Shown here in pieces: positions 18,785 through 64,000 of a DNA stretch of 64,000 nt. How positions within the stretch are numbered: the stretch's first letter is position 1; each line of letters opens with the position of its first letter. The notes under the pieces are model-generated. The model searched no databases. It had not been told where the DNA came from and was given only the letters and a program-made list of their open reading frames with translations. Position numbers and translations under genes: made by a program. Source of the stretch: an uncultured Candidatus Saccharibacteria bacterium (GTDB taxonomy: Bacteria; Patescibacteriota; Minisyncoccia; Phycocordibacterales; UBA9973). The stretch covers positions 56,504 through 120,503 of the forward strand of contig CAZSFR010000001.1 of assembly GCA_964606295.1 (NCBI GenBank), written 5' to 3'.

Positions 18785-18961
18785 GAATAATATACTGTTA
18801 CAAAATTGTTTTAATGATTTATAACAAAGGATAAAACGACAAGGTGTCTGTCCTATTTGCAAATTCAAAACACTATCAAACTTAATCGCCCTATTGAGAC
18901 TTGGTTTCCCTATTTTGAAAGTGCCGTTCTGCGTTTATCCTAATTCCGATACGATTAAGAT

Positions 18962-19402: not shown

Positions 19403-19478
19403 TATAGCTATTTTCTATACTAAAACATTTTCCAAAGAAAAAGGCAACCATTTTTGGTTGCTTTTTTCAAGCTTGATT

Positions 19479-23098: not shown

Positions 23099-23100
23099 AA

Positions 23101-23451: not shown

Positions 23452-23456
23452 ATTGA

Positions 23457-43739: not shown

Positions 43740-43793
43740 ATATTGAGCATACTACCATAGAACGAGGACATGTGAAAAAGAAATATTTTAGCT

Positions 43794-43822
43794 TTGACAA
43801 CAATGAAATTTAGATGTAATGT
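43794..43822 (+). promoter_or_regulatory. Candidate sigma-70-type promoter for pyrE: TTGACA, 17-bp spacer, TAATGT.
   Basis: -35 at 43794-43799 and -10 at 43817-43822. pyrE ATG at 43846. Confidence 0.4.
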
Positions 43823-43845
43823 GTAAATGAACTAAAAGAAATTCA

Positions 43846-44805: not shown

Positions 44806-44846
44806 ATAAAAACGTGGTGCAAATATTTGCACCACGTTATTTTTTT
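44806..44846. terminator. Perfect bidirectional intrinsic terminator shared by convergent pyrE and pyrF (ACGUGGUGCAAA-UAU-UUUGCACCACGU, A-run on one side and T-run on the other).
   Basis: 12-bp perfect stem. The T-run overlaps the pyrF stop. Confidence 0.7.
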
Positions 44847-45697: not shown

Positions 45698-45777
45698 AAA
45701 AAAAATTTTGTTTGAAAATAAATTTATCTCAATGAAATTACCACATACTTCGACTCTTGTAAACTAAAACATCTGAG

Positions 45778-47715: not shown

Positions 47716-47762
47716 GTCGTTTCCATTTGCAAAATGAAATTTGTTGTGTTAATCTAACGTTT

Positions 47763-47993
47763 ATGGCAACAATCCAAATCAATGTTCAAAAGAATTCAGG
47801 AGAGACAAGCGCAAGCGTGCTTCGTCGATTCACAAAGAAAGTTCAGGAGACTAGAATTATTCAGAAAGTAAAAGGACAGCGTTACAACACCCGCCCAAAA
47901 TCCTCACTAGTTCGCAAGAAGGGTGCTCTCCGACGAATCGCAAAACTCAAAGAAACTGATCGTCTAAAGAAGCTCGGCAAAATCAAGGAATAG
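47763..47993 (+). CDS. rpsU: Ribosomal protein S21.
   Basis: …ASVLRRFTKKVQETRIIQKVKGQRYNTRPKSSLVRKKGALRRIAKLKE matches the S21 pattern. Confidence 0.65.
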   Translation: MATIQINVQKNSGETSASVLRRFTKKVQETRIIQKVKGQRYNTRPKSSLVRKKGALRRIAKLKETDRLKKLGKIKE

Positions 47994-47994
47994 T

Positions 47995-48468
47995 ATGTAC
48001 AGAGAGTTTGGTAACGTTTCAATAAAAAGAGAGACATATGGTAAGCTCCCCAGCTTGCCATATTTTTCTATTAAAAATAAAGTCCTTGGAAAAAAATATG
48101 AGCTTTCGATTCTTTTTGCCACTCCCCAAAATGCTCAAAAGCTAAATCATCTCTATAGAAAGAAATCATACACACCCAATATTCTTTCTTTCTCACTTAA
48201 TAAAAGTTCTGGTGAACTTGTTCTGTGTCTCGGTACAATCCGCTCCCAAGCAAAAAGTTTTGAGATGTCATACCAAGATTTTCTCTCATACCTCTATATT
48301 CATGGTCTTTTGCATTTGAAAGGAATCGAACATGGTAGTACAATGGAGAGAGAGGAAAACGCCATCTTCAAAAAGTTTTTTGGCGACGATCTACCACATG
48401 GCACGAACCATACTCACAGGCATCGACATAGGAACATCTCACACTCGCGTCGTCATCGTCGAGTATAA
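47995..48468 (+). CDS. ybeY: rRNA maturation endoribonuclease YbeY.
   Basis: Zinc-binding motif HGLLHLKGIEH (H-x3-H-x5-H). Confidence 0.75.
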   Translation: MYREFGNVSIKRETYGKLPSLPYFSIKNKVLGKKYELSILFATPQNAQKLNHLYRKKSYTPNILSFSLNKSSGELVLCLGTIRSQAKSFEMSYQDFLSYLYIHGLLHLKGIEHGSTMEREENAIFKKFFGDDLPHGTNHTHRHRHRNISHSRRHRRV

Positions 48469-49564
48469 AAAAAACGACTCAGAGCCAACACTTATCGGTG
48501 CTGGTATCGCTCTTTCTGGTGGTGTGCGAAAAGGCTACATCGTCAATTCCAACCTCGCGATTGCATCTGTCCGTGACGCAGTATCACAAGCTGAAAAGCA
48601 GGCCGGTATCAAGATCAAGAAAGCATCTCTTTCTGTTGGTGGCATCGGTCTATCGACAGATACTGCGATTGGTACAGCTACTTCCACACGTGTCGACAAC
48701 ACAATCACAGAACTCGATGTTGAAAGGACAATGCGGGCATGCGAAGAAGCGCTGAAAGATAGGAACAAAAAGGTTGTTCATCGTATCCCTCTGGCGTACA
48801 AATTGGATGCAAAGCCTGTCCTCGGTGACCCTGTCGGTATGAAAGGAAAAAAACTCGAAGGAAAGGCTCTTTTTATTACTTGTTTGTCTCAACACATTGA
48901 ACGACTCGTCGAAACAGTGACTACGGCTGGTATCGAAGTAACAAGCATCATTGCTTCTCCTGTTGCAGTCGCAACAGTTGTACTCAATGAACGAGAGAAA
49001 ATCGCAGGCTCAATGCTCGCACACATAGGCGCAGAAACCGTCGGTACTGTCGTTTATGAAGATGGAAATATCCTTTCTCTCTCAATGATTCAGATTGGCT
49101 CTGCAGATATTACCAACGATATTGCTCTTGGTCTCAAAACATCTTTAGAGGAGGCGGAAGGAATCAAAGTAGGAACAGTCATATCAAGCACGTCAAAGAA
49201 GAAAATAGACGAGATCATTGAAGCACGACTGACAGATATTTTCGAATTAATAGAAAAGCATTTGAAGAAAATCGGACGCAGTGCACTCTTACCTGCCGGC
49301 ATTATATTTACTGGAGGTGGTTCACATCTTGGAAATTTGACTGACCTAGCAAAGCGCGAGCTCAAACTTCCCTCACGGATTGGTTTTATAAACGAGAGAT
49401 TTGATGGCAAGATGAAACTCAAAGATTCTGCATGGTTCCCCGCATATGGTTCATGTGTCTGCGAACACTCGTCGCCTTTTCCAGACGATGAATCTCGTGT
49501 TCCTCCATCAGATGGCGCTTTCAAAGAAACTTTCTTGGGATTTCTAAGACAATTGCTCCCATAA
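48398..49564 (+). CDS. ftsA: Cell division protein FtsA. Start is at MARTILTGIDIGTSH.
   Basis: Actin-fold phosphate motifs (GIDIGTSHTRVV…, …FTGGGSHL…). Sits immediately upstream of ftsZ. Confidence 0.8.
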   Translation: MARTILTGIDIGTSHTRVVIVEYKKNDSEPTLIGAGIALSGGVRKGYIVNSNLAIASVRDAVSQAEKQAGIKIKKASLSVGGIGLSTDTAIGTATSTRVDNTITELDVERTMRACEEALKDRNKKVVHRIPLAYKLDAKPVLGDPVGMKGKKLEGKALFITCLSQHIERLVETVTTAGIEVTSIIASPVAVATVVLNEREKIAGSMLAHIGAETVGTVVYEDGNILSLSMIQIGSADITNDIALGLKTSLEEAEGIKVGTVISSTSKKKIDEIIEARLTDIFELIEKHLKKIGRSALLPAGIIFTGGGSHLGNLTDLAKRELKLPSRIGFINERFDGKMKLKDSAWFPAYGSCVCEHSSPFPDDESRVPPSDGAFKETFLGFLRQLLP

Positions 49565-49740
49565 TAAAATATCCTCAACCTACAGTGGAAAGAGGCATCG
49601 CGCAAGCAGTTTTTTCTTACAAGTGAAGGCAATCGAAATCAAGCCGTGACTACTTTCCTTTTTTTTAGTTTCTGGTATTATGGTATCCGTAATTTAACGG
49701 CCGAAACTTAACCCAATCTATTAATTAGCCCAACACATAT

Positions 49741-50916
49741 ATGCCAAAAGTCAATCCTACTATCGAATCTTTCGCTCGTATCAAAGTTATCGGAATCGGT
49801 GGCTCTGGCAAAAACGCCTTGAACCACATGATCAACTCCAAAGTTCGTGGAGTTGAATTCATCGCAATGAATACCGACACACAGGATTTGCACAATTCAC
49901 TTGCAGAGAAAAAGATTCACATTGGCAAGAATCTTACCAAAGGACTCGGCGCAGGGATGAACCCTGAAATCGGTCGCAAAGCTGCTGAGGAAACAAAAAC
50001 AGAAATCCAAGACGTTATCAAAGGTGGCGAGATGGTATTCATAGCATGTGGTATGGGTGGAGGTACGGGTACGGGAGCAGCGCCTACAGTTGCTCGAGCA
50101 GCAAAAGAAAGCGGTGTACTCACTGTAGGTGTTGTCACAAAACCATTTTCATTTGAAGGACGCGAGAGAATGCGTCTAGCAGAAGAAGGTCTTGCCGAAT
50201 TAGAAAAAGAGGTTGACGCAATCATTATAATTCCGAACGACAGACTGCTCTCAATCACAAGTAAAGAAACAAGTTTGAAAAATGCTTTCTCAATGTGCGA
50301 CGAAGTCTTGCGACAAGCCGTCGAAGGAATCTCTGACTTGATTACAATTCCTGGTGACATCAACGTAGACTTCAACGATATCAAAACAATTATGGCAAAT
50401 GCTGGAACAGCACTCATGGGTATCGGTACGGCGACGGGAGACAAGCGAGCAGAAAAATCTGCATTTGATGCAATCAACTCTCCCCTTCTTGAAGTTTCTA
50501 TAAATGGAGCAAAAGGTATCCTGCTTTCGATTGCAGGTGGAGATGATCTCACTCTACATGAAGTTGCTGAGGCTGCGAAGATAGTTACGGAATCTGCAGA
50601 TAAGGACGCAAAAGTCATATTCGGTACATGCAAAGACGAACGTCTCAAGAAGGGAGAGATGAAAGTCACTGTCATCGCTACTGGCTTCCCTACCGCAAGT
50701 GGATCCGTTCAAAAGAAGTCACTTTTTGAAAAGCCAATTATTTCTGCTTCAACGTCACATCTAGAGGAGCGCAAGGAAATTCACAACACTCTTCCTGATG
50801 CAAATTTGGAAAAAAGAATAGCAACGGCTGAAATCATCGAAGACGATTCACTTTTGGGAGGTGACGATACAGACGATTGGAGCGCAGTTCCTGCATTCTT
50901 GCGAAGAAAGAAATAA
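49741..50916 (+). CDS. ftsZ: Cell division GTPase FtsZ.
   Basis: Tubulin signature GGGTGTGAAP, T7 loop, and overall FtsZ similarity. Confidence 0.95.
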   Translation: MPKVNPTIESFARIKVIGIGGSGKNALNHMINSKVRGVEFIAMNTDTQDLHNSLAEKKIHIGKNLTKGLGAGMNPEIGRKAAEETKTEIQDVIKGGEMVFIACGMGGGTGTGAAPTVARAAKESGVLTVGVVTKPFSFEGRERMRLAEEGLAELEKEVDAIIIIPNDRLLSITSKETSLKNAFSMCDEVLRQAVEGISDLITIPGDINVDFNDIKTIMANAGTALMGIGTATGDKRAEKSAFDAINSPLLEVSINGAKGILLSIAGGDDLTLHEVAEAAKIVTESADKDAKVIFGTCKDERLKKGEMKVTVIATGFPTASGSVQKKSLFEKPIISASTSHLEERKEIHNTLPDANLEKRIATAEIIEDDSLLGGDDTDDWSAVPAFLRRKK

Positions 50917-50968
50917 GTTTACTCACAAAAGGCCTCGATTTTCCGAGGCTTTTGTTTTGTGTTATGAT

Positions 50969-51916
50969 ATGACAACTATGGAACAAACAACCTACGATCT
51001 CATCATCATCGGCGGAGGGCCTGCAGGTGCTGCAGGCGCTGTCTATGCGTCACGCAAGAGACTAAAAACTCTTCTTATTACATATACTTTTGGTGGACAA
51101 TCCACTGATTCGTCTGACATCCAAAACTGGATCGGAACACCATCTATTTCAGGTGCTGACCTTGGCAAATCCCTTGAGACTCATATCAAAGCTTATGCAG
51201 ACGATGTCCTCACTATCGTCGAGGGAGAGAACGTGACAAAAGTAAAAGGAATTGAAAATTCATTCACTGTCTCAACTGATGCAGGTAAAGAGTATGAGGG
51301 AAAAACTATCCTTGTCACATCAGGTTCAGGCCGTAGAAAACTCGCAATACCTGGAGCAGACGTACTCGAACACAAAGGTATTACCTACTGCGCGTCATGC
51401 GACGGACTTTTGTTTCAAGGTATGGATGTCGCTGTCATAGGAGGAGGCAATGCAGGATTTGAAACTGCAGCACAACTTCTTGCCTATACCAAGAGCGTGA
51501 CTCTTTTCAATCGCGCGGATACTTTCAAGGCGGACGAAATCACTGTGGAGAAAGTTCTTTCTCATCCCTACATGACAGCTCTCAAAAATGTAGATTTGGT
51601 GTCAGTTGAGGGAGACAAGTTTGTATCTGGTTTGAAATACAAGGATATGACAACAAATGAGGAGAAACTTCTCCCTGTGCAAGGCATTTTTGTCGAAATC
51701 GGCCAGATTCCAAATACAGCTCTTGTAAAGGATTTTTTAACTCTCGATCAATACGGAAAAGTAGTAACCGATCCTATGACCCAAAGAACCTCAGTCAAGG
51801 GCGTATGGGCTGCAGGAGACTGCACAGACGGACTCTATCACCAAAACAACATCGCCGCTGGCGATGCTGTAAAAGCGCTTGAGGATATCTATCTCTATAT
51901 CCACGCAGGTAAATAA
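50969..51916 (+). CDS. trxB: Thioredoxin-reductase-like FAD/NAD(P) oxidoreductase. Start is at MTTMEQ.
   Basis: GGGPAG FAD motif, redox-active CASCDG, and a second dinucleotide motif GGGNAG. Confidence 0.7.
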   Translation: MTTMEQTTYDLIIIGGGPAGAAGAVYASRKRLKTLLITYTFGGQSTDSSDIQNWIGTPSISGADLGKSLETHIKAYADDVLTIVEGENVTKVKGIENSFTVSTDAGKEYEGKTILVTSGSGRRKLAIPGADVLEHKGITYCASCDGLLFQGMDVAVIGGGNAGFETAAQLLAYTKSVTLFNRADTFKADEITVEKVLSHPYMTALKNVDLVSVEGDKFVSGLKYKDMTTNEEKLLPVQGIFVEIGQIPNTALVKDFLTLDQYGKVVTDPMTQRTSVKGVWAAGDCTDGLYHQNNIAAGDAVKALEDIYLYIHAGK

Positions 51917-53677
51917 CTACTTTATCTTCTTATCAACATCATCGATTTCCTTTTCTATGATGTTTCCTGCTACGGACAGATCATTTCTCAATTTTGTTAG
52001 GAATGCTTGCTCATGTACTGAAAGAGGTTCTCCTGCTCTTACTTTTTTCAAGATTTCAATCTCATCTACTACTTCTTGATCAATAATCTTCATAGATTGA
52101 GCTGTAACTTCTTTTGCTTGCCCAACTTGAATGTGTAGCATTTTTTTATATTTTCTCCATCCTCTCAGTATAAGAATCCCAATCACAAATAAAAGTAGCA
52201 CTGCAATCAGTATTGGTATAATCGGTAGTATAATCCTCAAAGCCATATTCATAAATTTACCGAACACTCCTGGTAACACGGAGACGGAATAACTTTCTGT
52301 GAGAGTACTCTCAGCTCCGTTGTCCAAACGTGCTTTTGCAACAAAGTGATACTCACCGACTTTCCAGGCAGTTTTCATTGTGAAGTCGAAAGTACCATTC
52401 GGGTTGACTTTGACAATATTTTCATCACTTATTTTATTTTTACTGAATATTCTACCAATCCATGTTTCATTTTCCTTTTTGAAGTCAAATACTACATACG
52501 AATTTGCTATCGCAGTACCACTTGCTCTGAACACCGTGCCTCCATCAAGCTCTTGAGTGTAACTCAGTATAACCGGGACGCTAATTCCCTCGTATGTAAA
52601 ATAAACAACATTCACAATGTCATTTCCTGCATAATCATTGGCTCTTACAACCAACTGATGTTGGCCAAGAGAAAGCACCCCCGTGCTGTAAAGTGATTCT
52701 TCCGTTGTTTTCTGCCATATTACAGGATTCGAAGCATCTATACTTATTTCATAATTCTCTATACCAGACGTTGCATCAGTAGCGTTTAGTAAAAAATGTG
52801 TCGAGCCATCTTCGGGTTCTTTTTCGACTTTCGTAATGGTAAAATCACTTGGCTTCGTCTTATCGACATTAATTTTGAAATGCGTCGTCCCCCCCCAGCC
52901 GTAGCTATTTTTTAGTCTCAAGTGAAAGTACCACGTACCGTCTGTTATCTCTGCACTGGTATATGAAGAAGTTAATCCTTTGTCTTGCGTTGGAGTAGTT
53001 GTCGCATTTTTGTCGAGAACAAAGCTAACTGAGGTAGCATCAGTAGGGACTTGCCACTCAAACTGAGGCACAGATATCGCAAACCAGTCATTTGGGTCTG
53101 GGTGCGTTGGAGAGGTCACCAGAGGAGGTAGTGGAGAATTTGTTCCGGACATCGACGGTGTTGTGACTATTCCACCGCTTTGACCAATCGTGACAATAGA
53201 TTTTGGCAGTGAACCAGAGAGTATGTTGGTACCCTCCCCGTCGTTTGCCAGTATAGATGCTTGAGTCAATTCAAATGTAGCAATACCTGTACCTTCCGTC
53301 TTCCAACTAACTGTAAAAAGTTTGCCTCCAGTACCACTGAAACCAGGATTCAAAACCAATCCTTCAAATCTAACAGCCCCTGCTTCACTCGAAGGTTGTA
53401 TTGTCCAGAAATTTACAATGGTTCCGGATGTATTTATAGTTGGCGCACTCAACAAATTTGTTGGGTAATAGATACGTCCAGAAAAAGCATTTATGGCTTG
53501 ACTGGTACTGGATACTGAAACCGTCAATGTGATTGTCTCTCCTGTGTCTATGTTTGCTGTAGCAGGACTCACAGAGAATGTAGCTGCTTCAACGCCATGA
53601 AACGATACAGCAAAGAAGGCCGTTACAACAAGGAATTTCAATACAAATTGTTTGAAGTTTATAGAATAAAAATGCAT
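51917..53677 (-). CDS. Surface protein: signal peptide, N-terminal cohesin-like domain, Ig-like middle region, C-terminal TM anchor and cytoplasmic tail.
   Basis: ATFSVSPATANIDTGETITLTVSVSS…AINAFSGRIYYPTNLL…GKLFTVSWKTEGTGIATFEL follows the cohesin pattern. C-terminal TM LRIILPIIPILIAVLLLFVIGILIL. Confidence 0.5.
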   Translation of the reverse strand: MHFYSINFKQFVLKFLVVTAFFAVSFHGVEAATFSVSPATANIDTGETITLTVSVSSTSQAINAFSGRIYYPTNLLSAPTINTSGTIVNFWTIQPSSEAGAVRFEGLVLNPGFSGTGGKLFTVSWKTEGTGIATFELTQASILANDGEGTNILSGSLPKSIVTIGQSGGIVTTPSMSGTNSPLPPLVTSPTHPDPNDWFAISVPQFEWQVPTDATSVSFVLDKNATTTPTQDKGLTSSYTSAEITDGTWYFHLRLKNSYGWGGTTHFKINVDKTKPSDFTITKVEKEPEDGSTHFLLNATDATSGIENYEISIDASNPVIWQKTTEESLYSTGVLSLGQHQLVVRANDYAGNDIVNVVYFTYEGISVPVILSYTQELDGGTVFRASGTAIANSYVVFDFKKENETWIGRIFSKNKISDENIVKVNPNGTFDFTMKTAWKVGEYHFVAKARLDNGAESTLTESYSVSVLPGVFGKFMNMALRIILPIIPILIAVLLLFVIGILILRGWRKYKKMLHIQVGQAKEVTAQSMKIIDQEVVDEIEILKKVRAGEPLSVHEQAFLTKLRNDLSVAGNIIEKEIDDVDKKIK

Positions 53678-53689
53678 TTTAGAACTCTC

Positions 53690-54601
53690 TTATTGTACCT
53701 TTATTTTCTTAAATTTTCTAGGAACGAAGAAGATAACAAATGCAAAAATAGCAGTAACTATGAGAAGTGGTATCACCAAAATCGATACCGGAAAAAATTG
53801 CTCAGAATGTATTTGGGCTATACGTACGTTGCCAGCATTATCAATGGCCTTTACGCGTACTAGCGACCTCATAGATTGATCCTCTAGAAGATACGGGCTT
53901 TCTGCAACTTTCCAATCAGAATTGCCCTCCTTTACCTCAAAACGACTAATCCCAGACTCTTTGTCAGTTGTAGAAAATATCAAAAAATATTTTCCATCAA
54001 AAATGTATTGATTACTGGATATTTGTGGATAGAAAACCAAAGGTCTTTCAATGTCACTCGCGAAATTAGTACCGACTTCGCCCGTTTCGGAGGAAATCAC
54101 CCTAAATGGATATAGCAAAGTGGGAGCTTTGGTGCCAAGCCCATCATTAAAATACGCTTGCCCTGTTGTAAGGTACAACTCGGATGTAGAAATGGACTTT
54201 GTGGTAAAAATTGCAGAAAATAGTTTACCATCGAGATATGTCTGGTCTAGTGGGTTGATCGTGCCTCCAAATCCTCCAACCATTATCCCTGAAAATTTGA
54301 CACTCGATCCATTTGCTTTTGGTCTCTCAATCCACGAGGTAACAACAGAACTACCATCTCTAATACCAACCAACTCCAAGTGTTCATCGTCAAAAACCAA
54401 CTCTCCCTCGACTGCATTTATCAATTCTTCACTGGAATTTATAAAGACAGTGACTTCAAATTCAGCATTCGCTAGTACGGGGAATTTTTGATCTGATTGA
54501 AAGTAAATAGTCGCAGCATTAGCTTGCTTGTGTCCCAGAAAAAGCATGCTAAGAGTCACGAGGAGAATAAAAGTACATTTTTTTGAAAATAAATTGATCA
54601 T
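53690..54601 (-). CDS. Surface protein with an N-terminal cohesin-like domain and a C-terminal TM anchor.
   Basis: ATIYFQSDQKFPVLANAEFEVTVFINSSEELINAVEGELVFDDEHLELVGIRDGS… is a cohesin-like block. C-terminal TM plus KFKK tail. Confidence 0.5.
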   Translation of the reverse strand: MINLFSKKCTFILLVTLSMLFLGHKQANAATIYFQSDQKFPVLANAEFEVTVFINSSEELINAVEGELVFDDEHLELVGIRDGSSVVTSWIERPKANGSSVKFSGIMVGGFGGTINPLDQTYLDGKLFSAIFTTKSISTSELYLTTGQAYFNDGLGTKAPTLLYPFRVISSETGEVGTNFASDIERPLVFYPQISSNQYIFDGKYFLIFSTTDKESGISRFEVKEGNSDWKVAESPYLLEDQSMRSLVRVKAIDNAGNVRIAQIHSEQFFPVSILVIPLLIVTAIFAFVIFFVPRKFKKIKVQ

Positions 54602-54606
54602 ATGAT

Positions 54607-55545
54607 TTATCCAGTCCAGTAATATGCCAATATAGAGAAATCGACAAGCGTAATACGGCCATCTCCTGACAAATCTAGTTCAAGTGGCGCTCCCAATCTC
54701 CCGTACCAATACGCCAATATAGAAAAGTCTGTGATATTCACTCTGCAGTCTCCTGTGAAGTCTCCTTTTGGCGGACAACCTGAATTTAGAACAGTCTCAT
54801 TACCAACAGTAAATCCAACTATACTAGAATAAGATGTTACTTCTGCTCCGAGTGTTGACAACGACCTTGTGCTATGTGAGCCAAGTTCCAATACACCCGT
54901 ATTGAACCTATAGAGATATGCACCATAGTCGTCAGATGTCGTAGACAAAAAATACGGAACCAATGAATTAACATTGATAGTTATCGAAGCGTTTGGTGCA
55001 CTTTCCCCGAGTATAGTGATCGTTTCTCCTTTTGCAACAACAGTCTTATCGATAGATATAGTAGGGGCAATATAGATACCAGAAATAGTAGTCGATATAT
55101 TTTCTGTTACTACAATAGGAAATGTGAAGAGTGTTGACCTTCTCTCTTCACTATCCTCAGCCAAAACAGAAAACGTATACGAACCAGCTGGTAAATCAGA
55201 GATTGTTAGTGTAAATTTTGCATCAAGTCCAGCTGTAGTTTGTGCAATCTCAACTCCGTCTTGCAAAAATATTACTGCGGAGAAGGGATAAGCTCTGCCG
55301 GAGAACGTGACAGATGAATCTCCATCGTTCTGACCTCCTCCACCACCGCCCCCACCACCTCCTGCTCCTCCAGGATCGCCCACAGCAACAGTTGCAGTTA
55401 TGGTGACGTCTTCACTTACAGCACCCAACTCTCTTGGAGTTGAATCGTAAAAGATTCCTACTCCGAGAATGATAATTACAGATAAAATGCACCTGAATGA
55501 TTTATATAAATCATTCTTACTAAACTTTAGGAGTGGAAGTTTCAT
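54607..55545 (-). CDS. Secreted protein with a poly-Gly run (GGAGGGGGGGGGGQ), Ig-like domains and a C-terminal type-I-like dockerin (two Ca-binding repeats).
   Basis: C-terminus GDFTGDCRVNITDFSILAYWYG…DLSGDGRITLVDFSILAYYW is two D-x-x-G-D-x-x-V/I-N/T-x-x-D-F-x-x-L repeats. Confidence 0.55.
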   Translation of the reverse strand: MKLPLLKFSKNDLYKSFRCILSVIIILGVGIFYDSTPRELGAVSEDVTITATVAVGDPGGAGGGGGGGGGGQNDGDSSVTFSGRAYPFSAVIFLQDGVEIAQTTAGLDAKFTLTISDLPAGSYTFSVLAEDSEERRSTLFTFPIVVTENISTTISGIYIAPTISIDKTVVAKGETITILGESAPNASITINVNSLVPYFLSTTSDDYGAYLYRFNTGVLELGSHSTRSLSTLGAEVTSYSSIVGFTVGNETVLNSGCPPKGDFTGDCRVNITDFSILAYWYGRLGAPLELDLSGDGRITLVDFSILAYYWTG

Positions 55546-56566
55546 TCATTTCTTTCTTTAGCTCCTCCTTAATCTCAGAGCGCAATGACTCCTTCAAATT
55601 TCTTCGATAATGCGTCTTTGCACGCTTCATAATATTTATAAACAAGAACAATCCAACTACTATAACAATAAGAAGGTGCCAAGGCACTACAAAAAATCCA
55701 GTTTTTGCAGTTGATGTCTGGTCACTTTCAGCTCCGTACGCTAGCGATATATTTGCAGTATAGTATCCGAAAGCAAAATTCTTCCATTCATACACAACTT
55801 TTTTGAAAAATCCTAGATTTTCAATATTTGCAACATCACTTGATCCTCTGCTTGATTGCCAAGTAGCTTCAAATCTTCTTGTCTGTGATGGTAATACGTT
55901 ACCTTGAGCGGAGTTTGCAAGAACTTTTGCCCTCACAAAACCAAACATATGTCTGATGACTATATCTCCATCTGGCTTTATCCTATCTCCGCCTGAATTT
56001 TGGAATCTGTAATAAAAAGAAACCGGGAGTGCAGTAAAAAAATTCTTATTGTCAATTGTGCCGTATTCAATAATACCTCCTTCTTCATCTACATCTCCGT
56101 TTACACGGAGCAACACCAAAACACCAGTTTTTGCACCAATTGCTATAGATCCTTCCCCGCTAACTTCAGGATTATTTGTACCCCAAAATACTGCAGCGAA
56201 ATACCCACCAGGCTCAGCTATTTCTGGTATATCGATTGTGACTGGAACTATCTTACTTGTGCCAGGTGCAAGTATTACCATGGAGTCTGTTTGCATCCAT
56301 GTTCCCAGCCCATCTACAGGAGTTACGAAACTTGGACTTCCCGTCTCCCCTTGTGCTTCAAAGTTTGAGAATGAAGAGTAAAATGTTTGACTTGTGTCTC
56401 TATCGTTTATAAGTGTAATCTCACTTTCAATAGTAGCTCCAGGGTCTCCGCTTAATTCTATGAGAACTGGCGTAAGTGTCAGAGCGTGCGCTTTGCTGAC
56501 AAAACTAGATGAAAAAATTATGACTGAGCAAAGTATAACCGCTAGTGTTGTTATTTTTTTTTGCAT
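55520..56566 (-). CDS. Bitopic surface protein: signal peptide, about 260-aa beta-rich ectodomain, C-terminal TM, basic cytoplasmic tail. The architecture is reminiscent of DUF916/DUF3324 proteins from Gram-positive WxL/Csc surface loci.
   Basis: Signal MQKKITTLAVILCSVIIFSSSFVSKAHA, TM FFVVPWHLLIVIVVGLFLFINIM, tail KRAKTHYRRNLKE… The gene begins with an A9 homopolymer. Confidence 0.45.
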   Translation of the reverse strand: MQKKITTLAVILCSVIIFSSSFVSKAHALTLTPVLIELSGDPGATIESEITLINDRDTSQTFYSSFSNFEAQGETGSPSFVTPVDGLGTWMQTDSMVILAPGTSKIVPVTIDIPEIAEPGGYFAAVFWGTNNPEVSGEGSIAIGAKTGVLVLLRVNGDVDEEGGIIEYGTIDNKNFFTALPVSFYYRFQNSGGDRIKPDGDIVIRHMFGFVRAKVLANSAQGNVLPSQTRRFEATWQSSRGSSDVANIENLGFFKKVVYEWKNFAFGYYTANISLAYGAESDQTSTAKTGFFVVPWHLLIVIVVGLFLFINIMKRAKTHYRRNLKESLRSEIKEELKKEMNETSTPKV

Positions 56567-56579
56567 TATATTTTATGTA

Positions 56580-57677
56580 TTAGAAATTCCCCGTCGCTAT
56601 ATATGTAACATCTGTCGAGTATGAACCCGCTTCTGTTGTTGTCGCGATGTTTGCGATGTATTGAACGTCGATTGTTTCAGTTGCAGTAGCTATTGTTTCA
56701 GATGCGATGGTGGTTGTAGTGCCGGCAACAAACGCGTAGCTATTTGTTCCCGCAAGTTCGTATGCGGATGCTATCGTCACGTTACCTCCGTTATCGTCGA
56801 TACCTAGAGCAAACTGCTCTGATGCTGGGGTGCCGTCTGCGTCTGATGCAATAGTCGCTACGTTTATAGTGTTCGCTCCACTTGTGAGAGTGGCACCGAA
56901 GTATGTGATCGAGTATCCAGATGCAGCGTTTGTGGCAATAGTCATTTCGTGCGCCCCAGTTGTATCACCTGGTAGAACTCCTGTACCAGTTGCATCTGCT
57001 GTCGCATATCGTGCAGCGGTTGCATCGAGAGCTCCGAACCCTATCGCTACGTCAGATATTGTGAAAGTGATTGTTGGGCTCACCGTTGCAGTGATGTTGA
57101 CTGAGTCGTCTGCGATGATGTCGATAGCGATTGTTCCTGTGTCTCCGAATCCACCAGTGAACACGATAGTGTCGTCGTCATCAGCCGAACCGTTGGTTAC
57201 CGTACTCGCTGAACCTGTCGCACCAGTCGTCGCTGCTGTACCCCAGACAAGGCGCATACAGAATCCTGCTGTTAGGGTCTGATCTGTTTCTGGTGAAAGA
57301 GTAATTACATTACCCGTTACGTCCACTCCCCAGTCTGTAGCTGATGCAGTAGTAGCAACTACTTCATCTGTATATACAGCAGATGAACATGTTGCACTAT
57401 CTCCTAACTCGACGTCAAAATTGTTTACGTCTTCAGCTGCAAGAGTAAAGTCTGCACTGAAAGTAAGTATGATAGTATCACCTCCCACTTGGATACCTGT
57501 CGGGGTGGCAAATTGAACTGTTCCAGAACTGTTTGCTGTTGAAGCTTCTATTCTCCCTAGTGTTGCTGTCGCATTGGTCACCGAGGCAGCCATAGCCTTG
57601 CTTGGGAGCAGAGTTATAATTCCAGTTGCAGTGACGATAAATACAAAAACAAAAAGAGATGTTGCGAATTTTTTCAT
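56580..57677 (-). CDS. Secreted Thr/Ala/Gly-rich protein (365 aa), paralog A. Sec signal with A-M-A cleavage site. Conserved C-terminal ~170-aa domain ending in …SYSTDVTYIATGNF.
   Basis: Signal MKKFATSLFVFVFIVTATGIITLLPSKAMA|ASVT. The 3' 480 bp are identical to paralog B. Confidence 0.6.
   Translation of the reverse strand: MKKFATSLFVFVFIVTATGIITLLPSKAMAASVTNATATLGRIEASTANSSGTVQFATPTGIQVGGDTIILTFSADFTLAAEDVNNFDVELGDSATCSSAVYTDEVVATTASATDWGVDVTGNVITLSPETDQTLTAGFCMRLVWGTAATTGATGSASTVTNGSADDDDTIVFTGGFGDTGTIAIDIIADDSVNITATVSPTITFTISDVAIGFGALDATAARYATADATGTGVLPGDTTGAHEMTIATNAASGYSITYFGATLTSGANTINVATIASDADGTPASEQFALGIDDNGGNVTIASAYELAGTNSYAFVAGTTTTIASETIATATETIDVQYIANIATTTEAGSYSTDVTYIATGNF
56590..57070. 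repeat. About 480-bp segment 100 % identical to 57820-58300: the shared 3' halves of the two tandem paralog genes.
   Basis: Direct comparison of the two stretches. The plus-strand shadow ORFs 56830.. and 58060.. share identical first 77 residues. Confidence 0.8.
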
Positions 57678-57809
57678 AATCTTAGTAAGGACGTATTATC
57701 TATTATTTTATATGGATATATTATAACATTTTTACTAAAAATTGCCTCGCACATCGTCTGTGGATAACTTATCTGAACAGCTCAACCCCAGAAACAGAAT
57801 CAATCTATA

Positions 57810-58910
57810 TTAGAAATTACCAGTTGCTATATATGTAACATCTGTCGAGTATGAACCCGCTTCTGTTGTTGTCGCGATGTTTGCGATGTATTGAACGTCG
57901 ATTGTTTCAGTTGCAGTAGCTATTGTTTCAGATGCGATGGTGGTTGTAGTGCCGGCAACAAACGCGTAGCTATTTGTTCCCGCAAGTTCGTATGCGGATG
58001 CTATCGTCACGTTACCTCCGTTATCGTCGATACCTAGAGCAAACTGCTCTGATGCTGGGGTGCCGTCTGCGTCTGATGCAATAGTCGCTACGTTTATAGT
58101 GTTCGCTCCACTTGTGAGAGTGGCACCGAAGTATGTGATCGAGTATCCAGATGCAGCGTTTGTGGCAATAGTCATTTCGTGCGCCCCAGTTGTATCACCT
58201 GGTAGAACTCCTGTACCAGTTGCATCTGCTGTCGCATATCGTGCAGCGGTTGCATCGAGAGCTCCGAACCCTATCGCTACGTCAGATATAGAAAAGGTGA
58301 TTGTTGGGCTCACGGTTGCAGTGATGTTGACTGAGTCGTCCGTTATGATATCTATTGCGATAGTTCCTGTGTCTCCGAATCCACCAGTTATTGCAACGGA
58401 ATCATCATCATCTGCTCCACCGTTTGCCATAGTACTGGCTGAACCCGTACCTCCAGTTGTTGCAGCTGTACCCCAGACGAGACGCATACAGAATCCTGCA
58501 GTGAGGGTTTCGTCTGTGTCTGGCGAAAGAGTAAGGACATCCCCTGTGACATCTATTCCCCATTCCGTTCCAGAAGCATTAAGAGCAACTGTTTTATCGG
58601 TATAAACTGCAGTAGAGCACGTTGCACTGTCGCCGAGCTCTATATCAAAGTTTACCGCGGATTCTCCAACGAGTACGAAATCAGAACTAAAAGTAAGTAT
58701 GATTGTATCTGCGCCTCCTGTTTGAATGCCTGTCGGAGTCGCAAATTGAATAGTACCGGAATCGTTTGCACCTGTAGCTTCTATTCGTCCGAGTGTTGCA
58801 CTCGCGCTGGTCACCGAGGCAGCCATAGCCTTGCTTGGAAGCAAAGAAATAGCTCCGGTCGCTGTGACAATGAAGACAAGTACAAAAAGGGATGTTGCGA
58901 ATTTTTTCAT
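57810..58910 (-). CDS. Secreted Thr/Ala/Gly-rich protein (366 aa), paralog B. Tandem duplicate of paralog A with a diverged N-terminal half. Start is MKKFATSLFV at 58910.
   Basis: Same signal peptide and C-terminal domain as paralog A. Its upstream intergenic region is also related to that of paralog A. Confidence 0.6.
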   Translation of the reverse strand: MKKFATSLFVLVFIVTATGAISLLPSKAMAASVTSASATLGRIEATGANDSGTIQFATPTGIQTGGADTIILTFSSDFVLVGESAVNFDIELGDSATCSTAVYTDKTVALNASGTEWGIDVTGDVLTLSPDTDETLTAGFCMRLVWGTAATTGGTGSASTMANGGADDDDSVAITGGFGDTGTIAIDIITDDSVNITATVSPTITFSISDVAIGFGALDATAARYATADATGTGVLPGDTTGAHEMTIATNAASGYSITYFGATLTSGANTINVATIASDADGTPASEQFALGIDDNGGNVTIASAYELAGTNSYAFVAGTTTTIASETIATATETIDVQYIANIATTTEAGSYSTDVTYIATGNF

Positions 58911-59024
58911 AATCTTGATTAAGAGCACTTTCTCTATTAGTTTATGTATATTTATTATAGCACTTTTACAGAAAATCGTTATGCGGAACTTCTGTGGAAA
59001 GTTGATATGCATATCTCGCATTTA

Positions 59025-62000
59025 CTAAAAATTCCCCGTCATTATATATGTCAGATCTGTGGAGTATGTTCCAAATTCTGTGCCTGCCGCCATATTTGCA
59101 AGATACCGAATTGAATACGTAGTACTAAATCCATCTCCCTCTGTTTGAGTTGCAAAGGTATCGGCTGTAGTCGTGCCAGCATAGCCAAATCCTGCTCCAC
59201 TGTAAGTCGCATCAACTGCATCATAATAAGATACCCCAGAGAGGCTAGCACGGGCGCCGAATTGTTCGGTGCCTGTACTCGAAGCTGTATTTGTAGAGCC
59301 TATCTCATCTATTGTATCGCCTCCACTCGTCAAAGTATTTCCCGAAACTGTTATTGTATAACCTCCAGACGCACTCGTTGATCCGGTCATAGTATGCGCT
59401 TCTACTTCTGATGCGCTTCCCGTTGTATCGTCTGTCGCATACCTAGCAAGAGATGCGTCAAGTGATCCAAATCCAATAGTCGTATCAGATATCGCAAAAG
59501 AAATAGTTCTATCTTCTGGCTCAACCCACTGGATGCCTATCATCGCAAAGTCCCATTGGTTTACAGAATTACTAGCTGCGCCACCATCGACAGAAGTTCG
59601 AAGTCGATACCATGCCTCATCCCCTCCAGTGCTCACCAAATCTTCTGGATTTGTCATATAGCCGGCCATACCTCCAGAGGTATTTGTGGCCACTGTTATA
59701 TTGTCGGTATATACGAGGGCGGTAGTCGCCGACGCACCGAGTGCAATAAATCCTCCGATCGTAGCGGCAGCCGTGTTGTACCCCGAATAGTCCGCAATAC
59801 CGAGAGCAACTGTGCCGGCAACACCAGATAAAAATGAACTCGCAAAAAATATTCCTGTGATAGATCCATATGTTGGCTCTCCCATACTAAACTTCGTATG
59901 TGTTCCTGCCCCTTCTTCGTTGATTGTCGCGTCCATATCGACATCGAATGCATAGAAATCAAAAGCTGCGCCAGTCCCCCTGTTTGTAGATTCATTTTCA
60001 GTTGTTATCGTCCAAGCTGTTCCGTTATTTGTTGCACCTTCCAAGTTTACCGTACGCGTGGCAGTACAGTCATTTGTCGCAACTGTTCCAAACGATATAA
60101 AACACTTTGTTGCCCCATCATCAGAATTGGTTGTACCGAACATGAGATATGCCATGTCTATCTGTATCGCACCTGTGTCTGCTCCTGACGAGCGATAGAA
60201 TCGGAGCCTCGCTTCCCCTTCTGATACATAATCATCCATGGTGATGTTGTTTACCGCTCCAATACGGAACGTATCTGTCGTCGAACAAGATGCGATCTCA
60301 TTAATGATGTTCACCCACGCAGCTGTCGTAAAGTTATAAAGCGCCATTCTCACTTCCAGCGCAGTGCCTCCTACGGAACATGCAAATTCTGCGCGAGCAA
60401 GTATGGTATTCATACCAGGATACGTTTTTACATTTTTATACGATATATAACAATCGGGACCTCCAGTGGTACCGAGACACTGCAGGTCTATATTGTTCGA
60501 ACCCGCCTGCGTGACCGTATTTGCATTGGTGTAGTCGCCAGTAAAACTATTTGTAAGTGCTACAGCACCTGCTGGCTCATAGACTGGATTGATAACAGGA
60601 AAAATGCGCAGATAGTCAATCGCGAAGTTGCCCGCAGTTGTAGCGTTGGTCGTTGAATAATATCTAAAAAGGACACGCTTGTTCGCATCGGTTGTGACAA
60701 AATTGGTAAGTGGAGTGGAGATCGCTGTGTTTGAACCATTGGACCATTTGCCGTCATACACATTCCACGTATATGCTGTCGCTGTCGTTGGTGAAATAGT
60801 GGCGTCGCGTGAATTGAGTGTTCTCCACCCGCCTCCGGTGCAGTTTGCATCGGCCACATGGTCGACACTCGTCGTCGAAATCCAATCGCATATTTGTACC
60901 AACAGCACAGGTGCGGTCACGTCGGTGTCTATCTCTGACTGGACGATAATAGTATTCGCACCATTGAGCTTCACTCCATCGAGTTTTAGTTGGACATCAA
61001 TACCCGATGCTGTACCAGTAAGTTCCCAGTGTCTGTTGTCGTCTGCTGTTGTTCCTTTCCATGAACCGGTATTGGCACCGTTTGCTCCTGCTGCGATAAT
61101 ATTGTTTGCAGTAGTATCTGTTCCCGTAACGAGTGTTTGACCTGTAGGTATAAATGCATGGGTGACAGTTGGGTTGTAAGAATCCTCAACCCACTGTATC
61201 GATAGCATCACGAAATCCCACGCAGTTGTAGAGTTATCTGTCGTAGCACCTGAAGTAGATGTACGCAGGCGCATGTTCATAATGCCATCCACTGTATCGA
61301 CATAATTTTCTGGATTTAGTTGGAGTCCGTAGGCCAGTGCGCCCGTCGCAGACAGCGTATCTTGAAATGTTTGTGTCGTTGCGTTAACAGCAGAACCGAC
61401 ATCAGTCCAGCCACCAGTAATAGAAGTGAAACCAGAATAATCGTTAATACCATTTATCACTTGAGTTGTACCGATACTTCGAGATGTAGTACGACTAGCC
61501 CAATTGATACCAACAACTTGCGCATTTGCTGGCACGGTTATTGGTACTGATACATTTGCGGACACACCCTCTTCGGCTGTCACGTCTTGATCTGTGTCGA
61601 ACGGGTAAAATGAATTTGCTTCACCTGTTCCCATCGCTGCGGATTCGTCCTCGCCTGCGATATCGAACGACGTCGTAGATCCGTTTGTATCCATTCCGCG
61701 AGTATTCGTGCAGTTTGTCGCAGTTCCAGTTCCAAAAGAAATCTCACAGAGCGATGAGTCAGCGTTTACAGAGCCGAGCATTATGTACTGCCAGTCCAAT
61801 AGAATACCGTTGGTAATAGCAGAGGTACTTGCCCATCTGATACGAATCTCTCCATCTGAAATAAAGTCATTGAGAACAAATCCAGCATCCGAAACTGTGT
61901 TGTGTGCAATATAGTAACTCGTGTCCGTCGTTGAGCAGGTGATGTTCGCAGAGCCGAGTGCATCCCACGTTGACGTCGTGAAATCATAAATATAGGGCCT

Positions 62001-63032
62001 GATAGTTGGGGTACCGCTGTTGCAACTCACGGATGATGCGAGCATGATAGTGTTCATGCCAGTATATTGCTTCACATTTTTATATGACAAATAAAAATCA
62101 ACAACTTGAGAACTCGCGGCTACTCCCACACGGATGTTGTCGTTTGTGCCTACCGTCGTCACTGATGTAGCATTGTTTACCAGCGGAATCGAGTTTACAT
62201 ACACACCCACTTCTGCCCCGTCACCAGATACTTGATCGACATAATCCGCTGCATAATACACAGAATCTATATATGCAAATACGGTAAGGTAATCAATCGA
62301 TACAACAGATGTGGTATTTGTCGTTGAATAAAATCGGATTTTCAATTCACTGCTACTGTTTACAAAATTCGTAAGTGGAGTGTCGATAGGAGTGCCTGCA
62401 TCAGATGTTCCGTTAGAAAAAACACCATCGTATATTTGCCAGCGCAACTGGTCGTTTGCTGTATCTGTATACGCAACATCAGCATTGGCAGCTGTTTGTG
62501 TATTGATAGTACGCCATCCACCAGTTGTACAATTTGCATCTGCTACATTGTCGACGTTTGTCGAAGAAGTGAAGTCGCAGATCTGGAAAACCATACTAGG
62601 AACTGTCGCATCAAGGTCTATCTCAAGGCCTATATCTATTTTATTGGCACCATTTAGATTTACCCCTCCGACGGTCGTCACCAGTGAAATACCAGAGGCC
62701 GTAGAGGCAACAGTCCAATGAAAACTATCGTTACCTTGCATAGCTTGATATGAGCCGAGATTTGTACCTTCGACTGCTGCGATCGTCGCTGATGTCACTA
62801 TCTGTTCAGTACCCGTTTCCACAGTGGTAGCAGTAGGGAAAAATTGATACGTCGCAGCATCTGCTTTTGGGATATCTCGTACAATTTCTTTGCTCGAAGC
62901 AACACGAGAAAGTATTATCTCTGGAATACCACTGACTAAAAACAAAACTATCAAAACAAAAGATACAACTTTTTGAAATTCAATTGCACTTAGAGATTTC
63001 CTTATTTTATTTTTTAAAATTATAAAAAACAT
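59025..63032 (-). CDS. Giant (1335-aa) surface protein. It has an N-terminal signal/anchor, two ~500-aa internal tandem repeats with conserved Cys pairs, and a C-terminal ~170-aa domain homologous to paralogs A and B (…FGTYSTDLTYIMTGNF).
   Basis: Repeat blocks ICDFTSSTNVDNVADANCTTGGWRTIN / ICDWISTTSVDHVADANCTGGGWRTLN, LSYKNVKQYTGMNTIML / ISYKNVKTYPGMNTILA, WDFVMLSIQWVE / WDFAMIGIQWVE. Confidence 0.6.
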   Translation of the reverse strand: MFFIILKNKIRKSLSAIEFQKVVSFVLIVLFLVSGIPEIILSRVASSKEIVRDIPKADAATYQFFPTATTVETGTEQIVTSATIAAVEGTNLGSYQAMQGNDSFHWTVASTASGISLVTTVGGVNLNGANKIDIGLEIDLDATVPSMVFQICDFTSSTNVDNVADANCTTGGWRTINTQTAANADVAYTDTANDQLRWQIYDGVFSNGTSDAGTPIDTPLTNFVNSSSELKIRFYSTTNTTSVVSIDYLTVFAYIDSVYYAADYVDQVSGDGAEVGVYVNSIPLVNNATSVTTVGTNDNIRVGVAASSQVVDFYLSYKNVKQYTGMNTIMLASSVSCNSGTPTIRPYIYDFTTSTWDALGSANITCSTTDTSYYIAHNTVSDAGFVLNDFISDGEIRIRWASTSAITNGILLDWQYIMLGSVNADSSLCEISFGTGTATNCTNTRGMDTNGSTTSFDIAGEDESAAMGTGEANSFYPFDTDQDVTAEEGVSANVSVPITVPANAQVVGINWASRTTSRSIGTTQVINGINDYSGFTSITGGWTDVGSAVNATTQTFQDTLSATGALAYGLQLNPENYVDTVDGIMNMRLRTSTSGATTDNSTTAWDFVMLSIQWVEDSYNPTVTHAFIPTGQTLVTGTDTTANNIIAAGANGANTGSWKGTTADDNRHWELTGTASGIDVQLKLDGVKLNGANTIIVQSEIDTDVTAPVLLVQICDWISTTSVDHVADANCTGGGWRTLNSRDATISPTTATAYTWNVYDGKWSNGSNTAISTPLTNFVTTDANKRVLFRYYSTTNATTAGNFAIDYLRIFPVINPVYEPAGAVALTNSFTGDYTNANTVTQAGSNNIDLQCLGTTGGPDCYISYKNVKTYPGMNTILARAEFACSVGGTALEVRMALYNFTTAAWVNIINEIASCSTTDTFRIGAVNNITMDDYVSEGEARLRFYRSSGADTGAIQIDMAYLMFGTTNSDDGATKCFISFGTVATNDCTATRTVNLEGATNNGTAWTITTENESTNRGTGAAFDFYAFDVDMDATINEEGAGTHTKFSMGEPTYGSITGIFFASSFLSGVAGTVALGIADYSGYNTAAATIGGFIALGASATTALVYTDNITVATNTSGGMAGYMTNPEDLVSTGGDEAWYRLRTSVDGGAASNSVNQWDFAMIGIQWVEPEDRTISFAISDTTIGFGSLDASLARYATDDTTGSASEVEAHTMTGSTSASGGYTITVSGNTLTSGGDTIDEIGSTNTASSTGTEQFGARASLSGVSYYDAVDATYSGAGFGYAGTTTADTFATQTEGDGFSTTYSIRYLANMAAGTEFGTYSTDLTYIMTGNF

Positions 63033-63033
63033 T

Positions 63034-64000
63034 TTATTGTGTCAAAATATCTACGACTTCGAGTTGTTCATCATTTTTAATATCTTCATTGGCAGTAGTG
63101 TCAGTTTTCAATTGATTGAGCGCTTCTTCTTCCGCTATTTTCTCTTCGAGAGGGGTAACAATTTCAAGATTTGCTGGATCGATTGCAATCTCACTTACAT
63201 CTCCGTTTGGTTCCAAATATTTTACTTCAGATTCTAGAGAAGTACTAATACTTTGTGACGACATCCCTCCAGAAGCAGTATTGTATTGATTTATCGCAGT
63301 CTTATCTCGTGAAAGCCAGAAAATAATCGTGCCTGAAACATCAACAGGTGTTGCAATGTCTACAGTATCGCCTGATGCAACAAAATTCCATTCTAGTCCT
63401 TTTGCTCGTTCGGCTTGTATTTGTTCATCAGTATAGATTATAGGTATTACTCCAGGAACTATTTCTTCGGTAGTTGTAATAATAGGAATATTTTCATCGT
63501 CAAAATATTGTGTAGACTGCGGAATATTTTCATTTACAAAATTATTTATGATAATCACCCCTTCACCTGGTGTCGGCACAGAATCAAAATCAGACTGCGT
63601 ATTCTCTTCATTTATTTCTTGATCTTCAGAAGGAACTTCTTCATCAATATTCAAATCAAGTGACGATGATTCCGGATCTATATCAGTATTAGTATCAGTG
63701 TTGGCCTCAACCTCAGGCTCAGTAGAAGAATCCGAAGTGACACTGACTTCATCACCAGATGAGGACGAATCAGAAGTATCACCGCTCGTTTCAGTTGCTC
63801 CCTCTTCGGCATAGACTGGATGTAATCCAAATAATGATTTTATTTTATTTAAAACAGTCACTTCATTTGTCGAAGGTGTCACTATATCTTCTGTCACTGG
63901 AACCTCTTCTATGATTGGAGTAGGATCTTCTGTTATCGGATCCTCTTCTACGGCTGGGGCCGGATCTTCTGTCGTAACAGGAACATCTATCAAAATGTCT
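63034..64000 (-). CDS. Partial CDS (5' end beyond the window): extremely acidic, Thr/Glu/Asp/Pro-rich repetitive protein. Probably part of the same surface locus.
   Basis: The ORF continues in frame past position 64000. Sequence EDPAPAVEEDPITEDPTPIIEEVPVTED… is low complexity. Confidence 0.45.
   Translation of the reverse strand, partial: DILIDVPVTTEDPAPAVEEDPITEDPTPIIEEVPVTEDIVTPSTNEVTVLNKIKSLFGLHPVYAEEGATETSGDTSDSSSSGDEVSVTSDSSTEPEVEANTDTNTDIDPESSSLDLNIDEEVPSEDQEINEENTQSDFDSVPTPGEGVIIINNFVNENIPQSTQYFDDENIPIITTTEEIVPGVIPIIYTDEQIQAERAKGLEWNFVASGDTVDIATPVDVSGTIIFWLSRDKTAINQYNTASGGMSSQSISTSLESEVKYLEPNGDVSEIAIDPANLEIVTPLEEKIAEEEALNQLKTDTTANEDIKNDEQLEVVDILTQ

Follow-up and report, generated by a model that had tools for sequence, protein, structure and literature searches.

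Bacteria of the Candidate Phyla Radiation (CPR, or Patescibacteria) account for much of bacterial diversity and live attached to other microorganisms, and to our knowledge host-recognition molecules have been identified for almost none of them. Their cells have no outer membrane. In chaperone-usher pili, host recognition follows the logic of FimH and PapG, which join a receptor-binding domain to a pilin domain lacking a donor strand; in the other subunits of such pili the donor strand lies just N-terminal to the pilin domain, has alternating hydrophobic residues and carries a proline at its end, as in Caf1. Here we analyze a giant protein of 1335 amino acids encoded in a 64,000-nucleotide stretch of DNA (the window; contig CAZSFR010000001.1 of assembly GCA_964606295.1) from an uncultured bacterium deposited as Candidatus Saccharibacteria and placed by GTDB in UBA9973, and compare the protein and its operon with the described fibre and surface-display systems that they most resemble. 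The window seems to derive from a Paceibacteria/Nomurabacteria-like CPR genome. We propose this giant protein as the first candidate for a receptor-binding tip subunit of a Pam-type pilus, encoded in an operon whose anchoring parts differ from those of the published system.

A 2026 preprint described the Pam pilus from a single Saccharimonadia species in culture, Candidatus Mycosynbacter amalyticus; the system comprises the pilins PamA, PamB and PamE, the tip PamT, the chaperones PamC and PamD and the anchor PamR (bioRxiv 10.64898/2026.03.03.709456). The C-terminal domain of a Pam pilin accepts the linker strand of the neighbouring subunit, and filaments of PamA and PamB were visualized by cryo-electron microscopy; PamT, which has no linker, was proposed as the tip, the membrane-anchored and PapD-like PamC and PamD as chaperones, and PamR, with a transmembrane (TM) helix and an additional strand at its N-terminus, as terminator and anchor (bioRxiv 10.64898/2026.03.03.709456). 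No receptor-binding subunit was identified, the contact between pilin and host was left open, and the preprint is silent on a large binding subunit, on lectin or carbohydrate-binding module (CBM) folds, and on cohesin, dockerin and WxL (bioRxiv 10.64898/2026.03.03.709456). The WxL clusters of Firmicutes encode small WxL proteins, large WxL proteins with N-terminal binding domains and a C-terminal WxL domain, and WxLIP, which consists of DUF916, DUF3324 and a TM segment; a partner strand is predicted to insert beside the N-terminal strand of the shared domain (PMC10599100).

The gene for the giant lies on the minus strand (59025..63032, stop codon included) and is the second gene of its operon. 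Its C-terminal domain (residues 1172-1335, 59028..59519), which ends in ...LTYIMTGNF, matched the curated NCBIfam model NF058581 (CPR_Pam_pilin_C, Pam pilus system pilin subunit) over residues 1205-1335 at 62.5 bits, against a cutoff of 55 (E 4.4e-17). Furthermore, the C-terminal ~160 residues are 45-52% identical to the C-terminal domains of two small paralogs encoded downstream, the 45% match having an E-value of 1e-24, which substantiates the domain with a common TGNF end that an initial annotation, made from the sequence alone, had pointed out in the giant and the small paralogs. By the curated model, the C-terminal domain is a member of the Pam pilin family. The whole giant is neither a PamA/B/E-type pilin, having no linker and no nine-strand N-terminal domain, nor a PamT: against the PamT model (NF058579) it gave no match at E<=1, and the small pilins reached 20-22 bits against a cutoff of 240. 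Likeness to the Pam system extends to the small paralogs, in which an N-terminal domain, a linker strand and the C-terminal domain follow one another, to a membrane-anchored PapD-like chaperone in the operon, to paired cysteines, to the restriction to CPR and to the lack of an usher, no usher-like gene being found in the operon in the open reading frame (ORF) list or by Pfam or NCBIfam. In contrast to a Pam pilin, the giant carries ~1100 residues forming six CBM-like jelly rolls instead of a nine-strand N-terminal domain and has no linker strand, and in contrast to the single-domain PamT, the tip proposed here is a large binding protein; the lack of a linker strand is all that the giant and PamT have in common. 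We also considered the final phenylalanine as an outer-membrane beta-barrel signal and rejected this, as CPR cells lack an outer membrane and the domain is the curated pilin domain.

Residues 1-60 of the giant (62853..63032), read from the sequence, comprise a basic N-terminus, a 20-residue hydrophobic segment and KADA|ATYQF, and probably form a Sec signal sequence that is cleaved at A-x-A, directly ahead of the first repeat module; A-x-A followed by [TS]YQF is kept in the consensus of the giant's orthologs. When residues 1-620 were compared with residues 621-1335 by BLASTP, residues 61-616 aligned with residues 624-1171 at 38% identity and 55% positives (E 2e-105). The giant thus contains an internal duplication of ~550 residues that is far beyond chance, as the initial annotation had claimed, and the three motif blocks quoted there were found in both copies, module 1 (residues 61-616, 61185..62852) and module 2 (residues 624-1171, 59520..61163), both on the minus strand. 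A recent duplication at the DNA level was considered and rejected: the two modules share a single 42-nt match of 76%, and their proteins are 38% identical. The gene is intact, and a split by frameshifts in other assemblies, named in advance as a check, was not seen: the identical 1335-residue protein is present on independent NCBI, JGI and ENA assemblies, and full-length orthologs have 1307-1338 residues and are 68-81% identical to it. Searches of the whole giant, of each of the six subdomains and of the C-terminal domain against Pfam gave nothing meaningful at thresholds as loose as E 10, and no catalytic domain was detected in the giant by Pfam or NCBIfam.

Both modules carry conserved cysteine pairs, 152/168, 337/366 and 429/441 in module 1 and 715/731, 852/861, 885/916 and 977/989 in module 2. 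Of the earlier description of these pairs, their conservation and the number of three in the first repeat held, whereas the second repeat has four, 852/861 being an extra pair found in repeat 2 only, and the spacings are 16, 29-31 and 12 residues rather than about 20. Across 34 aligned homologs, the two members of a pair were together present or together absent in 30/0, 28+1 (2 exceptions), 18/13, 34/0, 7/27, 30/4 and 20/13 cases. The pairs fit disulfides because both members were gained and lost together across the homologs, and this co-occurrence is the pattern expected of disulfides. An AlphaFold2 model of residues 617-1335, built with 34 homologs, is all-beta (mean pLDDT 81.6, pTM 0.72), with three predicted jelly-roll subdomains in module 2, A (residues 624-816), B (817-971) and C (972-1171), followed by the C-terminal domain at a pLDDT of ~90. 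Profile comparison showed subdomains A and B to be homologous (98%, E 7.5e-14) and C to be marginally related. With Foldseek, the model matched multi-jelly-roll proteins in the PDB, namely reelin repeats, Cry protoxin domains, MAM domains and the CBMs of GH101, and fold matches to the giant's modules at 5-12% identity were found among beta-sandwich CBMs (CBM22, CBM15, CBM29, CBM4 and others); by sequence, no match to a CBM family was found. The all-beta model, the co-varying cysteines and the signal-sequence-like N-terminus with its conserved A-x-A all speak for the disulfide-stabilised, extracellular, beta-rich modules that had been predicted.

The junction between the modules and the pilin domain distinguishes the giant from the small pilins. 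In 96 small-pilin homologs, DD[QS]V.[IV]TATV[DS]P stands directly ahead of the conserved TI.F.ISD..IGFG, while in 33 giants with a pilin domain the final jelly-roll strand, QWDFAM..QW[IV]E, passes into TISFSISD..IGFG via 4-9 variable, proline-rich residues. The linker strand V.[IV]TATV.P is absent from the giant and from these 33 homologs, and in the giant itself PEDR alone separates the last jelly-roll strand from the pilin domain. Among the operon proteins of five lineages, the looser pattern [VI].[VI].A.V, which has a background frequency of 3.5e-4 per residue and is expected ~0.01 times per 30-residue stretch, occurs only in the pilin linker and no more than about 30 residues from the signal sequence of a further protein of the operon, of 312 residues (54607..55545, minus strand). 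By Pfam and motif comparison this protein has a signal or TM segment, the strand VTITATV (55387..55407), a poly-glycine linker, one or more Big_6 immunoglobulin-like (Ig) domains and a C-terminal dockerin; strand and linker, the latter of 13 nearly all-glycine residues, occupy residues 47-70 (about 55336..55407). Its orthologs in four other CPR lineages have VIIDARV, VYIEALV, ITVTAVV and SVTATVV at the equivalent position, so that N-terminal [VI].[VI].A.V is found in four of the five lineages, the fifth having SVTATVV.

By analogy, we infer that V-x-I-T-A-T-V is the donor strand, because it has the features of a chaperone-usher donor and because its free copy at the N-terminus of the dockerin protein resembles what was proposed for the terminator PamR. 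The candidate donor-strand peptide is DDSVNITATVSP, and the competing candidate is RTISFAISD. Since the giant has no such strand, it would be acceptor-only and therefore the first subunit, at the tip; the small pilins, with both donor and acceptor, would form the shaft; and the 312-residue dockerin protein, donor-only, would be the last subunit, and in its sequence it looks like a donor-only pilus terminator and anchor adaptor. The initial annotation had suggested that the giant and the small paralogs belong to one assembly, with the giant as its tip adhesin or giant subunit; the common pilin domain speaks for such a joint assembly, and the missing strand favours tip over shaft, the function being a matter of inference.

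On balance, and with moderate confidence, we favour the view that the giant is the distal, receptor-binding subunit (tip adhesin) of an usher-less, Pam-type donor-strand-exchange pilus. According to this proposal, Sec would export the giant, and its six CBM-like jelly-roll domains (2 x A-B-C) would fold outside the cell and be locked by disulfides. The open groove of its C-terminal pilin domain would be held by a membrane-anchored PapD/WxLIP-like chaperone that is encoded three genes downstream, and the giant, with an acceptor groove and no donor strand, would only be able to start a fibre. The two small pilins would then be added successively, the V-x-I-T-A-T-V linker strand of each entering the groove of the preceding subunit, until the 312-residue protein, with its donor-like strand, poly-glycine linker, Ig domains and dockerin, closed the fibre. 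Its dockerin would plug into cohesin-like domains of two membrane-anchored proteins and so tie the fibre to the cell, and the distal jelly-roll modules would bind a polymer of the host-cell surface, most likely a glycan.

This proposed arrangement has its counterpart in the adhesins FimH, PapG, CfaE and CsuE, in which a binding domain is joined to an incomplete Ig-like acceptor domain that is held by a chaperone of two Ig domains before assembly. In contrast to FimH and PapG, however, the giant has no detectable sequence relationship to them, neither an outer membrane nor an usher is involved, the chaperone is membrane-anchored, and the binding region is 5-7 times larger and duplicated. By analogy, the giant thus seems to work like the FimH and PapG adhesins functionally, and it is not a member of their family. 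If the giant is indeed a tip adhesin, it would provide a concrete, clonable host-recognition candidate for uncultured Paceibacteria-type lineages, the sequence of its modules might serve as a host-range marker, and the acceptor-only-first, donor-only-last principle known from chaperone-usher pili would hold for an usher-less system as well.

The proposed chaperone is a protein of 348 residues (55520..56566, minus strand), identified as chaperone-like (PamC/D, PapD or WxLIP type) with AlphaFold2 and Foldseek; its model has a pLDDT of 91 and comprises two Ig-like domains and a C-terminal helix, predicted as a TM helix, which is the layout that the preprint gives for PamC and PamD. Its best matches in the PDB were Enterococcus faecium WxLIP (9i1y/9i25, E 2e-11, template modelling scores 0.40-0.52), in entries of both free WxLIP and WxLIP bound to a long WxL protein, followed by the chaperone-usher chaperones CfaA, CsuC, DraB, Caf1M, CupB2 and EcpB and then by RbmA; the CfaA-CfaE and CsuC-CsuE complexes were among the matches. 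The protein has 630 homologs in the protein collection and no match in Pfam, where its orthologs gave weak or faint matches to WxLIP_PGBD. The fold match with WxLIP hints at a relationship between the Pam systems of CPR and the WxL clusters of Firmicutes, and this structural link offers a suggestion of how such clusters might operate in enterococci, listeriae and lactobacilli.

The same match opens an alternative in which no fibre is made: the giant would be a surface adhesin of the kind suggested for large WxL proteins, with its C-terminal domain bound by the chaperone or capped by the dockerin protein and its modules projecting from the cell. The structural matches of the 348-residue protein, which include the complex of WxLIP with long WxL (9i1y, 9i25), and the weak WxLIP_PGBD matches of its CPR orthologs are what such an arrangement would lead one to expect, and WxL clusters have the same parts list (PMC10599100): a TM-anchored partner with two Ig domains of similar fold and a large protein with the shared C-terminal domain. 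However, WxL proteins are described as peptidoglycan-bound surface proteins and not as filaments, and small WxL proteins have neither an N-terminal domain nor a linker, whereas the small paralogs here have both, like the filament-forming PamA and PamB. Furthermore, the C-terminal 164 residues of the giant gave no match to Pfam WxL (PF13731) at E 10 and contain no W-x-L motifs, but pass the Pam pilin model, and an operon encoding one protein that only donates and one that only accepts is best explained by a polymer between them. We therefore regard display without a fibre as unlikely.

Less likely still is that the giant is an ordinary polymerising subunit, in the shaft or interspersed along it, which both donates and accepts a strand and thereby places binding modules along the fibre. 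TISFAISD and the IGFG block that follows it are common to the giant and the small pilins, and the Pam preprint counts the donated linker among the most conserved regions, so that the giant would have a donor if TISFAISD were the donated strand. Yet V-x-I-T-A-T-V is at least as conserved in the small pilins and is absent from 33 of 33 giants, and the dockerin protein carries this strand alone at its N-terminus and has nothing like TISFAISD. In chaperone-usher pilins, moreover, the donor is followed directly by the A strand that belongs to the pilin domain itself, and there is one giant gene per operon as opposed to one or two small-pilin genes. We consider it highly improbable that the giant is a secreted or wall-borne polysaccharide-targeting protein, for example a component without catalytic function in a system that degrades glycans, or a coat resembling an S-layer, with its pilin-like end as a generic attachment tag: CBM-like folds are typical of glycan-active enzymes, the operon has cohesin- and dockerin-like parts in cellulosome fashion and some relatives have other C-terminal regions instead of the pilin domain, but the failure of Pfam and NCBIfam searches to detect a catalytic domain, the small, host-dependent genomes of CPR, the membership of the C-terminal domain in a specific curated pilin family and the conserved operon context all speak against it.

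Several observations weigh against a tip adhesin of a Pam-type pilus. None of the operon's proteins matched the NCBIfam models of the Pam chaperones or PamR, just as the giant did not match that of PamT, and Pam filaments are known only from a Saccharimonadia species, outside the lineage of the giant. The hydrophobic N-terminal segment of the giant lies ~20 residues ahead of A-x-A and might be retained as a membrane anchor. The predicted CBM-like fold of the modules is no proof of glycan binding, and in the window itself no protein reaches the Pfam threshold for cohesin or dockerin. Finally, the TISFSISD strand that is common to giant and small pilins could in principle be the donor, in which case the giant could stand anywhere in the fibre.

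The proposed attachment of the fibre base to the cell differs in design from that by PamR: a donor strand joined to a dockerin, held by TM proteins with cohesin-like domains, stands here against an RbmA-like fibronectin type III protein with its own TM helix. In the 312-residue protein, Big_6 (26.9 bits) and Dockerin_1 (21.7 bits) both scored just below cutoff, and its ortholog in the related locus L001 scored 29.8 for Dockerin_1 against a cutoff of 22.9. Downstream of it are two candidate membrane docks. The first, of 303 residues (53690..54601, minus strand), combines a cohesin-like domain at its N-terminus with a TM helix at its C-terminus; Cohesin was its best Pfam match, below threshold at E 0.035, and a weak Cohesin match is on record for its L003 ortholog. 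The second, of 586 residues (51917..53677, minus strand), has a cohesin-like domain (Cohesin E 0.046), Ig domains (Pfam Big_13), a TM helix and a cytoplasmic coiled-coil tail, and its L001 ortholog, 29% identical, scored 29.1 for Cohesin against a cutoff of 24.1; the corresponding cohesin/TM pair of L001 lies at 18435..20923. As in cellulosomes, a type I dockerin would stand at the C-terminus of one protein and cohesins on membrane-tethered partners encoded next door. In contrast to cellulosomes, the pair is proposed here to tether the base of a pilus and not enzymes, and the scores are sub-threshold in the window and above cutoff in orthologs. A cohesin-dockerin pairing beside a CPR pilus operon was not found in the literature searched, and if the giant is a tip adhesin, this pairing would have found an unexpected use as a fibre anchor.

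We also compared the order of genes among related loci. Giant, one or more pilins, chaperone, dockerin protein and two cohesin/TM proteins follow one another in the window, in L001 (Falkowbacteria, CP065010.1), in L003 and in L005, where the giant has a single module, and the order in L004 matches as far as the dockerin protein. The two small-pilin genes of the window are a tandem duplication with a period of 1230 nt (56578..59021). Paralog 1 (57810..59021, minus strand; NF058581 69.7 bits) is listed as an ORF of 403 residues, the true start of which is likely Met38 at 58910, giving 366 residues; paralog 2 (56580..57677, minus strand; NF058581 70.4 bits) has 365 residues and 572 homologs. Their predicted donor strands, VNITATV in both, lie at 58311..58331 and 57081..57101, respectively. 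The two proteins are 89% identical, and the 3' 300 nt of their genes are 99% identical DNA whereas the regions for the N-terminal domain differ, which suggests recent gene conversion of the C-terminal domain. PDB sequences were searched with one small pilin, with the profile of the chaperone and with both proteins carrying cohesin-like domains, and these searches, which did not reach the entries of PamA and PamB (25PZ, 25QA), gave nothing relevant. A scan of 51500..64000 for promoters and terminators gave no excess over shuffled sequences.

The gene upstream of the giant (63034..64000, minus strand) encodes a very acidic protein of low complexity that has a TM segment at its N-terminus; the window holds its last 319 residues, and the full length of 822 residues is present in L006 (3361..5829). 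The 319-residue ORF listed with a TTG start is accordingly a fragment of this gene, cut by the end of the window. Genes for relatives of the 822-residue protein precede the giant gene in L003, L001 and L005.

The ~550-residue module of the giant, a conserved A-B-C triplet that sets it apart from the CBM families, is rare, with 122 cluster representatives among 1.84 billion at E<=1e-3, and the homologs with an organism name are all from CPR, including Nomurabacteria, Paceibacterota, Falkowbacteria, Kerfeldbacteria, Wolfebacteria, Magasanikbacteria, Doudnabacteria and Dojkabacteria. Their architectures comprise one module with a pilin domain (738-743 residues), two modules with a pilin domain (~1270-1340 residues), which is that of the giant, two modules, an extra domain of ~190 residues and a pilin domain (~1462 residues), and two modules with other C-termini. 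A subgroup (P0053, P0055, P0067, P0074, P0092 and others) has an insertion of ~400 residues between subdomains B and C; its identification as the Pfam ribosome-inactivating protein family RIP was rejected, the matches being short repeated pieces with no single stretch that passes. In one relative, P0017, an M23 peptidoglycan peptidase (90 bits) stands ahead of two modules, and such a fusion of the module pair to a peptidase is as expected of a targeting or binding module.

We further compared the two modules within each protein. In most lineages they are 57-91% identical (for example in P0008, P0009, P0018, P0058 and P0078) and are each other's closest relatives, whereas in the clade of the giant their identity is 41-43% and a neighbour-joining tree (no bootstrap) places them on separate branches. 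This suggests either that the duplication took place many times over or that the giant's clade escaped a homogenisation by gene conversion that is otherwise usual. If the copies did escape homogenisation, two different specificities could be combined in one adhesin.

Going beyond the window, it is a tentative and in our judgement doubtful generalization that many Paceibacteria- and ABY1-type CPR make a usher-less donor-strand-exchange fibre with two defined ends, a fast-evolving, modular, CBM-like giant tip that decides the host and a donor-strand-dockerin base on membrane cohesins, and that this system and the WxL/WxLIP clusters would be two branches of an ancient monoderm pathway that uses a chaperone without an usher.

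The operon is flanked by the housekeeping genes MreB, PriA-like, YbeY, FtsA and FtsZ (42726..50916), and the region is therefore chromosomal and not a mobile element or phage. Directly adjoining the operon is a thioredoxin-reductase-like gene on the plus strand (50861..51916), and L003 has genes for DsbA-like proteins of the thioredoxin fold directly downstream of its orthologous operon (19525..20283 and 22850..23536). These thioredoxin-type genes may be relevant to the extracellular formation of the conserved disulfides.

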